Below are positions 1,348 to 62,755 of a stretch of 64,000 nt of DNA, piece by piece; position 1 is the stretch's first letter, and every line of letters begins with the position of its first letter. A program made the position numbers and the translations under genes. The notes under the pieces are model-generated. The model searched no databases. It was not told the origin of the DNA and saw only the letters and a program-made list of their open reading frames with translations. This DNA is from Deltaproteobacteria bacterium (GTDB lineage Bacteria; UBA10199; JACPAL01; JACOUP01): positions 1,025,165 through 1,089,164 of the forward strand of contig JACOUP010000008.1 of the NCBI GenBank assembly GCA_016177765.1. Reading direction: 5' to 3'.

Positions 1348-1406
1348 CACCCATTGGGTGAATCACCCTTGGGTGAACCACCCCTTGACACGAGGTGTCA
1401 CCCCCC
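1348..1406. repeat. Intergenic cluster of three overlapping copies of the GGGTGAAyCACCC palindrome family
   Basis: gggtgaatcaccc at 1356-1368, gggtgaaccaccc at 1371-1383, ggtgtcacccc at 1394-1404. Confidence 0.7.
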
Positions 1407-1424
1407 GTAAAAGGGCTCGACCTC

Positions 1425-2717
1425 ATGGGATCCTTTCGACTGACACGGCCCACAGAAGGAAATGCAATAACCCTCCGTTCCGACGGTCGTCTGGAGGTTC
1501 CCTCCGAACCGATCATCCCTTTTATCGAAGGGGATGGGACCGGCCCTGATATCTGGCGCGCCTCCGTCGCCGTTTTTGATGCGGCGGTCGCCAGGGCGTA
1601 CGGGGGGAAAAGAAAAATCGCCTGGTTTGAACTGTTTGCCGGTGAAAAGGCGAAAAAGGTTTACGGCCCTGATTGTCCCCCGAACCTCTTGCCGGATGAA
1701 ACCATCGAAAAAATCAGGGAGTATTTGGTGGCGATCAAGGGTCCGCTCACCACGCCGGTCGGGAAGGGGATTCGGAGCCTCAATGTGACGCTCCGTCAGC
1801 AGTTGGATCTCTACGTCTGTCTCCGCCCGGTCCGGTATTTCAAAGGGACCCCCTCTCCGGTCAAACAGCCGGAGCTGATCGATATGGTGATTTTTCGGGA
1901 AAATACCGAAGATATCTACGCCGGGATCGAATGGGAGGCGGAGTCTCCCGAGGCCAAAAAAGTGATCGGGTTCTTGCAGGGCCAGATGGGAGTCACGAAG
2001 ATCCGGTTCCCGGAGACCTCGGGGATTGGCATCAAGCCGGTCTCCCGGGAAGGGACCGAACGGCTGGTTCGGGCGGCGATCCGTTACGCCCTGGAACGAA
2101 AACGGAAAAGCTTAACCCTCGTCCACAAGGGAAACATCATGAAGTTTACCGAGGGGGCGTTTCAGAAGTGGGGGTATGAACTGGCGGTGAGGGAGTTTAG
2201 GGATCGGGTCGTTACCTGGGAGGAACAACAAAAATCCCCCAGTCCCCCTTTGTCAAAGGGGGATACAGGGGGATTTCCAAAACTCCTTATTAAGGACGCC
2301 ATCGCGGACAATTTTCTCCAGCAGATCCTCACCCGGGCGGCCGAATACGACGTGATTGCGACGCTTAATCTGAATGGGGATTATATTTCGGATGCCTTGG
2401 CGGCCCAGGTTGGAGGGATCGGGATCGCCCCGGGCGGCAACATCAACTTTATGACCGGTCGGGCGATCTTTGAGGCGACCCACGGGACGGCGCCGAAGTA
2501 CGCCGGGCAGGACAAGGTGAATCCCGGTTCGGTGATCCTCTCCGGCGTGATGATGCTCGACTATCTGGGGTGGAAAGAGGCGGCGGCCCTGATTGTTCAG
2601 GGGTTGGAAAAGACGATTGCGAACAAGACGGTGACCTATGATTTTGCCCGGCTGATGGAAGGGGCGAAGGAGTTGAAGTGCTCGGAGTTCGGAAAAGAGA
2701 TTATTAAAAATATGTAA
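1425..2717 (+). CDS. icd: NADP-dependent isocitrate dehydrogenase
   Basis: N-terminus [30 protein letters not shown] matches prokaryotic IDH. ATG at 1425 has an AAAAGGG ribosome-binding site; the track's start at 1395 is a GTG inside the repeat cluster. Confidence 0.9.
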
Positions 2718-2728
2718 GGAGAGGATCT

Positions 2729-60356: not shown

Positions 60357-60690
60357 CTTCGGTAAAGAACGATTGGATTGTTTTGAGATACTGGTTCTGT
60401 TCGATGCCCAGGTAGTCATGAACGCCGAGGTTGCGATCCTCCAGAAAGGCGAGCCATTTTTCGACATTGTCAATAAGCCCCATGCGGCCGGCCAGCTTGA
60501 TCGCCTCTTTGGGGCTGTAGGCCTCAAACCCCTCATCATTGGCCTTTTGTTTAAAATGCTTCCAGGCGTATTCAAAACAGATCTCAAATTTTTTGGCGAT
60601 ACCCGAATAATAAAAATCGTCTTTTTCGGCCTTGTTCAGAAAGGAGAGGGCATGCTCCAGATCGTCAATGGCCTCTTTTAGCTTCTTCAT
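60340..60690 (-). CDS. HEPN-domain protein (nucleotidyltransferase substrate-binding, HI0074 family)
   Basis: 116 aa; overlaps the upstream MNT gene. Confidence 0.65.
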   Translation of the reverse strand: MKKLKEAIDDLEHALSFLNKAEKDDFYYSGIAKKFEICFEYAWKHFKQKANDEGFEAYSPKEAIKLAGRMGLIDNVEKWLAFLEDRNLGVHDYLGIEQNQYLKTIQSFFTEVKKLK

Positions 60691-61237
60691 GGCGACTCCT
60701 TTTGTTCAAGGCAATCCAGCTGGTGAGCGACCCTCCCAGAAAAACCGATCCCTTGGAGGCCTGTCGCAAAAAATCGTTGTCGGCCCGGTTGAGATTGACG
60801 AGGTCGATTTTATAGGGAGAAGATTCTTCAAAGTCCCCCTTCTTTTGAATCATACTCCGGTAAATTTCGTGGAAGAGCCCCTTTTCGGCATAGATACCGA
60901 TATCCCAATCCGCATATTTTTGCGCCTTCTGCCTGGCTCGTGAACCGAACAGAACAAAAGCTACGGAAGGAAACTCCTCTTGGAGTTGACTGATCAGGGG
61001 GGCGATCGGTTCGAGTGGGGATAAAGAGGACTCTTCACTCTGGATCAAAATTTCTGCCGGTTTCAGCCGGAGTCTTGAAAGGAGCTTTTCAAAGGCGGCC
61101 GGAAAAACGCCATGACCCGAAAGATAGTAGTGAATGGTGTTCCGATGGAGACCGAGATCCTTCGCCAAGGCGCCAATGGAGGGATAACCCTGCTCCTTCA
61201 AGGCCTCCTCAAATCGCCGGGCATCAATGATATGCAC
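60665..61237 (-). CDS. Minimal nucleotidyltransferase (MNT) with N-terminal HTH
   Basis: LFGSRARQ...DWDIGIY (GSx...DxD) motif; HTH LAKDLGLHRNTIHYYL. Confidence 0.65.
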   Translation of the reverse strand: MHIIDARRFEEALKEQGYPSIGALAKDLGLHRNTIHYYLSGHGVFPAAFEKLLSRLRLKPAEILIQSEESSLSPLEPIAPLISQLQEEFPSVAFVLFGSRARQKAQKYADWDIGIYAEKGLFHEIYRSMIQKKGDFEESSPYKIDLVNLNRADNDFLRQASKGSVFLGGSLTSWIALNKRSRHEEAKRGH

Positions 61238-61273
61238 AGTATTATTATACAGTATACAATAATATTGTCAATT

Positions 61274-62755
61274 CTAACCTTCCCTGAGTTTCAGTTCCCG
61301 TCCCCAGATCAGGTCGACCGCCTTGAGGGCGGAGAGGACCTTTCCTTCCGTGCCGAGCCAGGGGAGGAGGTTTGGCCCGACGGTCAGCATGTTATCGTAG
61401 GGAGAGGTGAGGGTCGGGAAGAAAAAAGAGGGGGTGTAGGCAACGCAGGCGCCGGCGCCCTTCCGGAAGGCGTTGTATTCCTCGGAGCTTTCCGGGAAGA
61501 GTCCATCCTCTTCCGGCAAAATCTTGGGGGAAACCCTTTTGAGCGAACTACCGGCAAACGGAATCAGTCTGTGGAGAAGACCGGTGATCTCTTCGTGGAG
61601 TTTTTCAAACTCTGGCACAGTCATTGACAGTTTTTCCGGCGGCAGAAAATAACTCACAGAAAGCAACGTGTCTCCTTCTTGCTTCATGTTTTTGGGAATC
61701 GGTTGCCGGTTCAGCTGCAGGTAGTTGCTACCGGATAAAGGGAGCGACGGGTCCTGGATCAAAAGAAGATTTTCCTTCATCGGGGTTGGCAGGACCTGAC
61801 TGTCAACAACATACAAAAGATTCATCCGGTGAGTGACCGGCGCCAGTCGGGACGCCTTCTTTTTAAATTGCATTGTGCGGAATCCTTGGGTGAGCCACCC
61901 TTTGGGGGTCATCTGGTAGATCTTCCGGTTCGGAATCATCTGGTAAATCTTTTGGATATTGGTATTCCCCAGCAGGTATCGGCACCGAGTCACAAAACCA
62001 CACTGGGGGAGTTTGACCCCTTTGACCTCTTTTTTCTGAATGACCAGATCGAAACCATCCGTTGCCCTCTGAACCGCTCCTCCAAAGTATTCAATCTTTT
62101 CGTAGAAGATTTTTTTCAGTTCCGTTAGCCCTCCCTTGACCGAGTAGGTGGCGAAGATTTCCGGAGAGAGAAGAAAACAGAGTTGAAAGAAAAGCGGATC
62201 CATGAGGACCCCCTGAGACAGAAACAGGAGTTGGGACCGGATGAAACTGGCTACCTCCACAGGCGTCTTCTCCACAAGGGAAGAGAGCCTTTGATAGGGA
62301 AGGGCCCGGGCCAGTTTGACAAACCTCTTTTTTTCCTTTTTGTCCGCGATGGGAAGTGAAGGGGCCAGCAGCTCCAGCGCCGTTTTGCGAAACCCTTCAG
62401 CCTCGTTGTAGAGGTTTTCAAAGAAACCGACAAGCTCCGGGAATTCGCGTTGAATCTCCTTGAAGAGGATGGAGGGATTGGGCGAAACATCCAGCCGATT
62501 CCGCGGAAAGACGACCTGGTAACTGACCCGATTTTTCTCAATGATCTGCAACCGCCCGTCCGGGATCATCAATTTGCCAAGGATACTTTTGAAAAGCCGG
62601 GATTCAAGGCCGGTCAAGACGTTCGGTTCAAAACCGCCATCGTCTTCCAACACAAGAACACTCATCCCCCGTTTGGCGAGCAGAGTCGCCGCCAGGATGC
62701 CGGAAAGGTCACTCCCGACAACGAGGAGGTCGCAAAAATTGGGGGTCATTGTCAT
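61274..62755 (-). CDS. FAD/NAD(P)-binding oxidoreductase (phytoene-desaturase-like)
   Basis: N-terminal DLLVVGSDLSGILAATLLAKRG dinucleotide fold; palindromic element at 61888-61900. Confidence 0.6.
   Translation of the reverse strand: MTMTPNFCDLLVVGSDLSGILAATLLAKRGMSVLVLEDDGGFEPNVLTGLESRLFKSILGKLMIPDGRLQIIEKNRVSYQVVFPRNRLDVSPNPSILFKEIQREFPELVGFFENLYNEAEGFRKTALELLAPSLPIADKKEKKRFVKLARALPYQRLSSLVEKTPVEVASFIRSQLLFLSQGVLMDPLFFQLCFLLSPEIFATYSVKGGLTELKKIFYEKIEYFGGAVQRATDGFDLVIQKKEVKGVKLPQCGFVTRCRYLLGNTNIQKIYQMIPNRKIYQMTPKGWLTQGFRTMQFKKKASRLAPVTHRMNLLYVVDSQVLPTPMKENLLLIQDPSLPLSGSNYLQLNRQPIPKNMKQEGDTLLSVSYFLPPEKLSMTVPEFEKLHEEITGLLHRLIPFAGSSLKRVSPKILPEEDGLFPESSEEYNAFRKGAGACVAYTPSFFFPTLTSPYDNMLTVGPNLLPWLGTEGKVLSALKAVDLIWGRELKLREG

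Follow-up and report, generated by a model that had tools for sequence, protein, structure and literature searches.

We analyzed a 64,000-nucleotide stretch of the Deltaproteobacteria bacterium assembly GCA_016177765.1 (contig JACOUP010000008.1, forward-strand positions 1,025,165 to 1,089,164; hereafter the window), in which a short palindromic repeat with a GGGTG stem recurs both between genes and inside housekeeping genes such as those for malate dehydrogenase (MDH), SdhA and transketolase (TKT). The original prediction would have failed had this motif been no more frequent than base composition allows, but our counts show a clear excess: GGGTGAAYCACCC has 8 exact matches in the window against 0.02 expected, a number reached in none of 100 dinucleotide-preserving shuffles, and allowing up to two mismatches yields 35 strand-hits against 5.96 expected. 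We then scored every 17-mer on both strands against the consensus TTGGGTGAAYCACCCTT, taking sites that score at least 14/17 as family members. The scores are bimodal: 15 sites reach 14–17, and below them, from 13 downwards, comes a tail that resembles random background. GGGTG is also the dominant stem among the window's perfect 5+3+5 palindromes, accounting for 11 of them, whereas in simulations a stem occurs 2.4 times on average and never more than 5. These results confirm that the occurrence of the repeat is real and far above chance. The 15 member cores start at 1356, 1371, 3073, 5145, 31080, 31850, 37470, 37853, 40218, 42165, 42225, 42240, 59024, 60320 and 61888, a density of ~1 copy per 4 kb, and 12 of the 15 are intragenic. 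The copies, with the full 15-nt span where an insertion could be delimited, are as follows:

1356–1368, minus: intergenic, first copy of a head-to-tail pair between the citrate synthase gene and icd; exact, 17/17
1371–1383, minus: second copy of this pair; exact, 16/17
3071–3085, minus: insertion in mdh (TCGGGTGAACCACCC); read from the plus strand as S-G-E-P-P, MDH residues 115–119
5145–5159, plus: insertion in sdhA (GGGTGGTTCACCCGA); reads (K)G-G-S-P-E, a clean 5-residue gap in relatives
31080–31094, plus: insertion in paralog C (gene at 30784–32253; GGGTGATTCACCTAA); reads K-G-D-S-P, a gap in its paralogs
31850–31862, plus: second copy in paralog C (AGGTGGCTCACCC); 15/17, in another frame, K-V-A-H-P-K
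37470–37482, minus: copy in a tolQ/exbB-like gene (37089–37790, minus); 16/17 with one stem mismatch, K-G-D-S-S-K, in a cytoplasmic loop
37853–37865, no strand assigned: atypical intergenic copy (GGGTGAATTACCC / GGGTAATTCACCC) between tolQ and a phasin gene; 15/17 on the minus strand
40216–40230, minus: insertion in the transketolase gene (39057–40955, minus); reads P-K-G-G-S, a clean 5-residue gap
42165–42177, plus: variant in the C-terminal tail of ctpA (GGGCGGTTCGCCC); 14/17, reads G-G-S-P-K
42225–42252, plus: two head-to-tail units in the ctpA tail; 16/17 and 17/17, TSPK-GGSPK-GGSPK
59024–59036, minus: copy in a hypothetical gene (58138–59262, minus) without a Pfam match; exact, reads R-V-I-H-P-G
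60320–60332, minus: copy in the C-terminal tail of RNase HII (59658–60356, plus); exact, reads G-E-S-P-L
61886–61900, minus: insertion in an oxidoreductase-like gene (61274–62755, minus); third frame, G-W-L-T-Q

The coordinates originally proposed do carry the motif, apart from two that we removed, and three copies had been overlooked: the exact copy at 59024, the tolQ copy at 37470 and the second copy in paralog C at 31850. The first site removed, at 1394–1404, belongs to a different 13-nt palindrome, GACAC-GAG-GTGTC, which has the same 5+3+5 architecture and lies at 1389–1401, directly after the intergenic pair; a lone CACCC half-unit (at ~1348) stands before that pair. The second, at 19527–19539 in an aldehyde dehydrogenase (ALDH) gene, is a perfect GGGTG-CTC-CACCC, but it has a different loop, scores 13/17 and aligns without a gap to solved ALDHs, and is probably a chance look-alike. 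The sequence family was first described as an unfamiliar one, and the four 13-mer forms of the repeat had no occurrence in the full-text literature (~8 million papers). An Rfam scan of the window returned two tRNAs only, with no known RNA family at any repeat copy. Viral contigs gave one exact 18-mer match, by our estimate roughly what chance alone would produce in so large a collection.

Tandem copies lie exactly 15 nt apart in both window pairs (1356/1371 and 42225/42240), and from this spacing the true unit is 15 nt rather than the 13 nt first described. To establish its boundaries, we oriented each copy by its loop (R-Y-T) and compared 24 copies from the window and other loci. All 24 read [AA] GGGTG RYT CACCC [RA], with constant arms and a variable centre; the two bases on the 5′ side are AA in 20 of 24 and both purines in 23, and those on the 3′ side are AA in 15 and GA in 3. 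In 23 of 24 copies the AA flank and the orientation of the loop go together, the copy at 37853 being the only one in which they conflict. Read through its flanks, conservation reaches past the 13-mer as cTT-GGGTGAAYCACCC-TTg. The unit is thus directional, AA^GGGTG-RYT-CACCC-RA, a 13-nt hairpin plus 2 nt, as in the copy at 1356, which on the minus strand (the strand of the K-initial reading described below, or K strand) is AA/GGGTG ATT CACCC/AA with 15 nt to the next copy. Two properties follow from this anatomy. Because its last bases are AA, each inserted unit supplies a fresh target, which would give head-to-tail arrays with an exact 15-nt period, and all multimers are indeed head-to-tail with this period and half units at the array ends, such as the half unit ACCTCACCC (~42213–42224) that precedes the ctpA pair at 42225. 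And since 15 nt is five codons, an insertion never shifts the reading frame and only adds a pentapeptide.

The hairpin itself is real but modest, with a 5-bp stem, a 3-nt loop and folding energies of ~-4 kcal/mol as DNA and ~-7 as RNA. Several copies carry stem mismatches: pairing is lost in three stem variants, and a G-T wobble results in one. Only in the 42165 variant, GGGCG-GTT-CGCCC, have two mutually pairing positions changed with the stem kept.

We next asked whether genic copies are additions to their host proteins, as the original prediction proposed. Five genic copies could be assessed against homologs (MDH, SdhA, transketolase, paralog C and the oxidoreductase-like protein), and all five are precise 15-nt, 5-residue insertions that no homolog carries. 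The original prediction thus withstood the test that it had set itself, a search for orthologs with the same residues at these positions. The MDH of the window organism is 314 aa long vs. 308–310 aa in 13 relatives (72–81% identity; one with a longer N-terminus excepted), and SGEPP, encoded at TCGGGTGAACCACCC, is the only internal gap in the alignment, absent from these 13 relatives and from solved MDHs. In a predicted MDH structure (mean pLDDT 80.5), the insert falls in the connection between helix 89–110 and strand 120–123, a helix-to-strand loop. In SdhA, GGSPE sits between the invariant K266 and P272 and corresponds to a five-column gap in three relatives (73–79% identity), while paralog C, LEEKVGD[KGDSP]KVLSE, shows a clean 5-residue gap in its three in-window paralogs. 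The PKGGS of transketolase is absent from 14 relatives, the closest at 72% identity, and opposite human TKT the gap is 8 residues. The oxidoreductase-like protein has a 14-residue gap in 9 homologs, including the ortholog from the metagenome-assembled genome (MAG) JAUSKE01; these 14 residues comprise the 15-nt unit (GGG TGG CTC ACC CAA = GWLTQ) together with a diverged 27-nt tandem duplication (61909–61962, KIYQMIPNR / KIYQMTPKG) that lies directly upstream of the unit and occurs in no homolog.

All five of these insertions can be written as AA^[13-nt palindrome + RA], with the following junctions:

mdh: CACAAA[GGGTGGTTCACCCGA]CGC
sdhA: GGAAA[GGGTGGTTCACCCGA]ACC
paralog C: GACAA[GGGTGATTCACCTAA]GGTT
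transketolase gene: CCAAA[GGGTGGTTCACCCAA]GATG
oxidoreductase-like gene: CCCAAA[GGGTGGCTCACCCAA]GGATTC

At the MDH site, the 5′ AA predates the insertion, because it is a conserved Phe codon on the other strand; where sites are flanked AA...AA, the junctions are compatible with an AA duplication.

A sixth case lies outside the window, in the RNase R gene of a carrier with 38% GC, where two units (GGSPKGDSP) fall within the RNB (catalytic) domain and correspond to a 9–10-residue gap in the solved Bacillus subtilis and Escherichia coli enzymes and in 11 relatives (at most 46% identity). Other genic copies are found in C-terminal tails (ctpA, RNase HII and, at another carrier locus, L010, peptide deformylase) or in variable loops (tolQ). 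The ctpA tail copies lie downstream of the S41 peptidase domain (residues 225–390). The RNase HII tail is 9 residues longer than that of a 56%-identical ortholog from a syntenic relative (locus L012), which is suggestive of an insertion, although its relatives are distant and the case is not a clean one, and the tolQ copy lies in a region too variable for E. coli TolQ to be an informative comparison.

We also noted several neighboring features. The gene sucD (8064–8966, plus) carries a 12-residue insertion (8818–8853) right after the phospho-histidine motif GHAGAII of the succinyl-CoA ligase alpha subunit, absent from relatives at 84–86% identity. Its DNA consists of four 9-nt ACCGGTnnn units (ACCGGT being palindromic) that encode a collagen-like G-x-y peptide, and it is a local tandem expansion whose sequence is unrelated to the GGGTG family. 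Paralog C belongs to four adjacent paralogous genes (27451–33647) that share a ~170-residue N-terminal domain without a Pfam match followed by Pro/Ala-rich linkers, two of them also with a carboxypeptidase-regulatory-like domain. Three small toxin-antitoxin-like modules lie among the housekeeping genes, at 45702–46771 (AbiEii-like nucleotidyltransferase), 54596–55127 (PIN/DUF5615) and 60340–61237 (nucleotidyltransferase plus HepT-like), and the syntenic relative L012 is missing the nucleotidyltransferase/HepT-like pair between RNase HII and the oxidoreductase-like gene.

Several lines of evidence establish that what recurs is a DNA element and not a protein motif. Genic copies occur in both orientations and in at least two frames, as had been claimed, and in fact in four orientation and frame combinations: K-G-(G/D)-S-P (n = 7), V-x-H-P (n = 2), G-W-L-T-Q (n = 1) and, from the other strand, G-E-(P/S)-P (n = 2). 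The earlier statement that they always yield Gly/Ser/Pro/Lys loops was accordingly too strong, as the readings R-V-I-H-P-G at 59024, K-V-A-H-P-K at 31850 and G-W-L-T-Q at 61888 illustrate. Copies in the K frame always use GGT, TCA and CCC, which make up 21%, 11% and 27% of the window's Gly, Ser and Pro codons, and the probability that six independent K-frame loci would share these same minority codons by chance is ~4e-14. Intergenic copies are present at 1356/1371, at 37853, between dnaN and gyrB at carrier locus L005 and in a 14-nt gap between two genes at carrier locus L013. Together, the intergenic copies, the four readings and the identical minority codons rule out a selected KGGSP linker peptide as the explanation.

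The placement of copies shows signs of selection filtering. The window is ~95% coding, yet 5 of 16 loci from the window and JAUSKE01 are intergenic, against 5% non-coding sequence (P = 0.001). Relative to gene sense, the K reading prevails by 11 loci to 2 (P = 0.02 under equal odds; P = 0.06 under a 3:2 expectation, given that one of the six frames contains a TGA stop), and copy orientation tracks the gene strand and not the chromosome strand. Intergenic enrichment, the K bias, the loop position of the MDH insert and the C-terminal tail position of other copies all point in this direction.

Two of the intergenic copies lie close to translation signals. At L005:1694–1735, a tandem pair stands 5′ of gyrB with the unit tail running into the AAGGAG ribosome-binding site, and at L013:3134–3153 a copy fills the 14-nt gap from a TAA stop to the next ATG, reading GAC TAA [GGGTGATTCACCCAA] TGG. 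We infer that the L013 copy was probably dropped into an overlapping TAATG stop/start junction with both signals kept, as the AA rule predicts. The left arm AAGGGTGAT on the K strand is complementary to part of the conserved 16S rRNA 3′ tail (..GATCACC..), so that copies abutting start codons might affect translation initiation.

Across genomes, the family is confined to a small number of related uncultured "Deltaproteobacteria" MAGs with 38–55% GC, in which it occupies different sites. Its tandem form is present in only one of 185,579 species-representative genomes, the MAG JAUSKE01 (GCA_030649435.1), and on two contigs from a single JGI metagenome. JAUSKE01, a syntenic relative whose oxidoreductase-like protein is 66% identical, carries 5 copies in 17.7 kb. 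The 61888 copy is missing from its ortholog of the oxidoreductase-like gene, and other copies stand at places that are empty in the window organism. These different occupied sites imply that copies were gained or lost independently in the two lineages. A copy upstream of purM shared by the two organisms was not found, the contig end there being another hairpin. Four other relatives (57–80% identity in marker proteins; 71 kb in total) yielded no copy, non-carrier relatives including GCA_040960375.1, GCA_016180855.1 and GCA_964655665.1, and copy density differs more than 5-fold between carrier lineages, with the 38%-GC lineage having a single locus in 22 kb. The same insertions were recovered in independent short-read assemblies of six sequencing runs, and this, together with the presence of the family in JGI, ENA and GenBank assemblies of other projects, means that the repeat is not an assembly artefact. 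One short-read contig of the same organism (L001) starts exactly at window position 1356, at the tandem pair, which suggests that the repeat breaks short-read assemblies.

Once inserted, copies appear to decay. A relative that is 88% identical to the 38%-GC organism carries the orthologous RNase R insertion, with 2 of 28 nt differing (vs. 13% gene-wide) and one of these changes breaking the stem, and remains of a third unit at this locus have decayed differently in the two organisms. The pattern has the look of an old copy drifting neutrally rather than of a signal being maintained.

Comparison with known systems places the repeat near, but outside, several established classes. The original prediction had likened it to Rickettsia palindromic elements (RPEs), a likeness that holds for behavior only: both are dispersed palindromic repeats found in frame in unrelated, still-functional housekeeping genes, where they add a fold-compatible peptide, and also between genes (PMC10969869). 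In-frame presence is seen here in the five window insertions and the one in RNase R elsewhere. RPEs, however, are ~100–150 bp long, encode peptides of tens of residues and form ten families in Rickettsia (PMC10969869), whereas our unit of 15 nt and 5 residues is about ten-fold shorter, forms exact head-to-tail arrays, resides in a free-living uncultured host labelled "Deltaproteobacteria", not Rickettsia, and at 15 nt is too short for homology along a whole RPE. The unit does not belong among the RPEs. Repetitive extragenic palindromic sequences (REPs) are 20–40 bp long, with a 5–13-bp stem, a 2–20-nt loop and a GTAG/CGTC tag at one end, and occur mostly as head-to-head or tail-to-tail dimers, mainly extragenically downstream of genes (PMC3733652). 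The unit resembles them as a small G+C-rich stem-loop whose 5-bp stem and 3-nt loop lie within the REP ranges; REPs too have intragenic, translated units documented in several species and a patchy, lineage-specific abundance, and are thought to be selfish (PMC3733652). It differs in falling below the REP size range at 13–15 nt, in lacking the GTAG/CGTC tag (the flanks are AA...RA, or TT...TY on the other strand, in the 24 copies, and a single CGTC by the mdh copy comes from a host Ala codon), and in being only head-to-tail and mostly intragenic in the window. [quoted passage not shown] Our unit is a single 13-nt palindrome with no internal region, its half-sites are not enriched, and its flank/loop coupling speaks against a symmetric target duplication.

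Elements of the IS200/IS605 group recognize hairpins and insert strand-specifically 3′ of a short target without target-site duplication, and the insertion logic that we deduce for the unit matches theirs. They span hundreds of bases or more, carry two different subterminal hairpins and use a 4–5-nt target, in contrast to one 13-nt hairpin and a 2-nt target here, and neither the window nor the annotated carrier loci turned up a TnpA gene. Mitochondrial GC clusters and hairpin elements (yeast, Volvox, sponges and placozoans) are likewise very short proliferating palindromes, sometimes in frame in genes, but they belong to organelle genomes, have other sequences and variable lengths, and show no fixed five-codon unit. 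Laboratory pentapeptide scanning, an engineered two-step procedure, leaves a 15-bp scar that adds five residues and includes a 5-bp target duplication that changes with the site. The net frame-preserving gain is the same, although all 15 nt are constant in our unit while the scar's 5 bp vary. DNA uptake sequences (DUS in Neisseria, USS in Pasteurellaceae) and cyanobacterial HIP1 are over-represented oligomers in core genes, in both orientations and with frame biases, that arise largely by substitution in existing sequence; every testable copy of the unit is instead a discrete insertion, and an orthologous copy drifts. As it fails membership in the RPE, REP and MITE classes, we class the family as an ultra-short, five-codon, in-frame hairpin repeat. 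Translated palindromic insertions were already known; the unusual features here are how small the unit is, its frame-neutral length, its directional junction at AA and its occurrence within the cores of MDH, SdhA, transketolase and RNase R.

Many insertions of a directional 15-nt unit have thus taken place at AA sites, within a limited set of genomes in which the copies then drift. We interpret the unit as a non-coding family of selfish hairpin repeats, very short and lineage-restricted, that resemble REPs and RPEs in behavior, a reading to which we assign a probability of roughly 60%. The words selfish and mobile are drawn from the insertion patterns and from the different occupied sites in related genomes, which together suggest that copies spread by an active process. 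The spreading unit, GGGTG-RYT-CACCC plus RA on the loop (R-Y-T) strand, would be placed directly 3′ of a pre-existing AA. Selection would then remove harmful copies, leaving survivors in protein tails and connecting loops or outside genes altogether, and surviving genic copies would mostly be those in the orientation and frame that reads as the flexible, hydrophilic K-G-(G/D)-S-P.

As to how copies might move, we tentatively propose strand-specific, hairpin-directed single-strand insertion by a trans-acting enzyme of the HUH/tyrosine type, a mechanism that we think possible but somewhat short of an even chance. Such an enzyme, encoded elsewhere in the genome, would follow the "peel-and-paste" logic of REP-associated tyrosine transposases (RAYTs) or IS200/IS605, inserting 3′ of a short target without target duplication, and its presumed substrate would be single-stranded AA^GGGTGRYTCACCC-RA. 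We favor this model because the junction is strand-specific and 3′ of a short target, no target duplication is required and the repeat is lineage-restricted. Symmetric double-strand cut-and-paste with an AA/TT duplication would be expected to produce both orientations equally, and we reject it because the flank/loop coupling in 23 of 24 copies speaks against it. More speculative still is the idea that the 15-nt unit is a "nano-element", the smallest autonomous-looking unit of mobile DNA in bacteria and a natural pentapeptide-scanning mutagen, moved by an unrecognized hairpin-specific single-strand enzyme for which a 5-bp stem and an AA target would suffice; we regard this stronger version as rather doubtful.

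Several observations weigh against a mobile, enzyme-driven repeat. Neither the 64-kb window nor the annotated carrier loci encode a transposase, an integrase or an HUH-domain protein, and a single 5-bp hairpin is, to our knowledge, far below the needs of any characterized HUH transposase; neither the two subterminal hairpins of IS200/IS605 nor the GTAG/CGTC tag of REPs is present. IS200/IS605 elements prefer the lagging-strand template, and we see no clear replication-strand bias (~7 loci vs. 4, with GC skew uniformly positive across the window), although the sample is small and confounded by genic selection. No presence/absence polymorphism was detected, with all short-read contigs of the same population carrying the same copies. 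Finally, two resolved sites are flanked AAGG...AAGG, a microhomology that fits enzyme-free copying equally well.

This last point leads to the alternative that survives best, enzyme-free spread by template switching during replication, which we nevertheless consider unlikely. Here, a nascent strand ending in AA(GG) would leave its template, anneal to the AA(GG) of a copy elsewhere, copy one unit and return via the same microhomology, a process that hairpin-induced stalling would favor and that local slippage would extend into tandem arrays. It accounts for the AAGG...AAGG flanks of paralog C and the oxidoreductase-like gene, for the CCAAAG...CCCAAG flanks in transketolase and for the strict 15-nt spacing of the arrays with their terminal half units, and it has no need of the transposase that the window lacks. 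The palindromic tandem expansion in sucD and the 27-nt duplication by the 61888 copy show, moreover, that slippage-type events occur in this genome. The MDH and SdhA sites, however, share just 1–2 nt of homology with the unit; a density of ~1 copy per 4 kb, with many copies identical, would need implausibly frequent pairs of precise ectopic switches on 2–4 nt of homology; and relatives of similar composition without copies suggest a lineage-specific agent.

Less probable again, and in our view improbable by a wide measure, is a functional DNA signal kept by selection, such as an uptake sequence or the site of a dimeric chromosome-organizing, regulatory or restriction-related protein. Constant arms around a variable centre are typical of dimer-bound sites, the density and the presence in core genes recall uptake sequences, the 42165 variant keeps pairing through a two-sided change, and some copies abut start codons. 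A signal maintained by selection does not sit easily with copies that arose as whole 15-nt insertions and not by point mutation, with an orientation that tracks the gene strand and favors the most benign peptide, with stem mismatches left unrepaired and an orthologous copy drifting at about the gene-wide rate, or with the large density differences between carriers and close relatives that are without the motif.

We give very little credence to a further possibility, that the copies mark places from which a larger cut-and-paste transposon with inverted ends GGGTGA...TCACCC was excised, which would have left stubs and a 2-bp target duplication, after the model of Tc1/mariner excision footprints and of laboratory pentapeptide-scanning mutagenesis. 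The near-perfect 6+1+6 palindrome (GGGTGA-A-TCACCC) with its variation at the centre, the net gain of always 15 nt and the AA flank of most copies are all in keeping with such an origin. But the 64 kb contain no full-length element or transposase, and isolated half-sites are at expectation (GGGTGA, 69 vs. 56 expected; GGGTGAA, 9 vs. 16 expected), so that there is no sign of a larger parent element. The coupling of loop to AA flank is unexpected for a symmetric excision product, head-to-tail arrays are hard to explain, and we know of no uniform footprints of 15-nt length in bacteria. The absence of any DNA element, with a chance-enriched oligomer, selection converging on a K-G-G-S-P linker or an artefact of assembly or sequencing in its place, could draw on the similar flexible peptide encoded by most genic copies, but is already refuted by the shuffles that never match the observed count, the intergenic copies and three other readings, the shared minority codons, and the recovery of the insertions across the six runs and of the family in the JGI, ENA and GenBank assemblies.

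If the selfish hairpin repeat that we favor is indeed mobilized, the lower size limit for a proliferating DNA element would drop several-fold, and an enzyme or replication pathway that recognizes a 13-nt hairpin would be implied. In practical terms, the repeat breaks short-read assemblies, and it introduces unexpected "lineage-specific inserts" into marker proteins used for the phylogeny and annotation of uncultured lineages. The copies also constitute a natural experiment on where MDH, SdhA, transketolase and RNase R tolerate loop insertions of five residues. For the genomes that carry it, the five-codon length offers a simple route by which selfish DNA can enter sequence that is ~95% coding, and could explain why most copies are intragenic.

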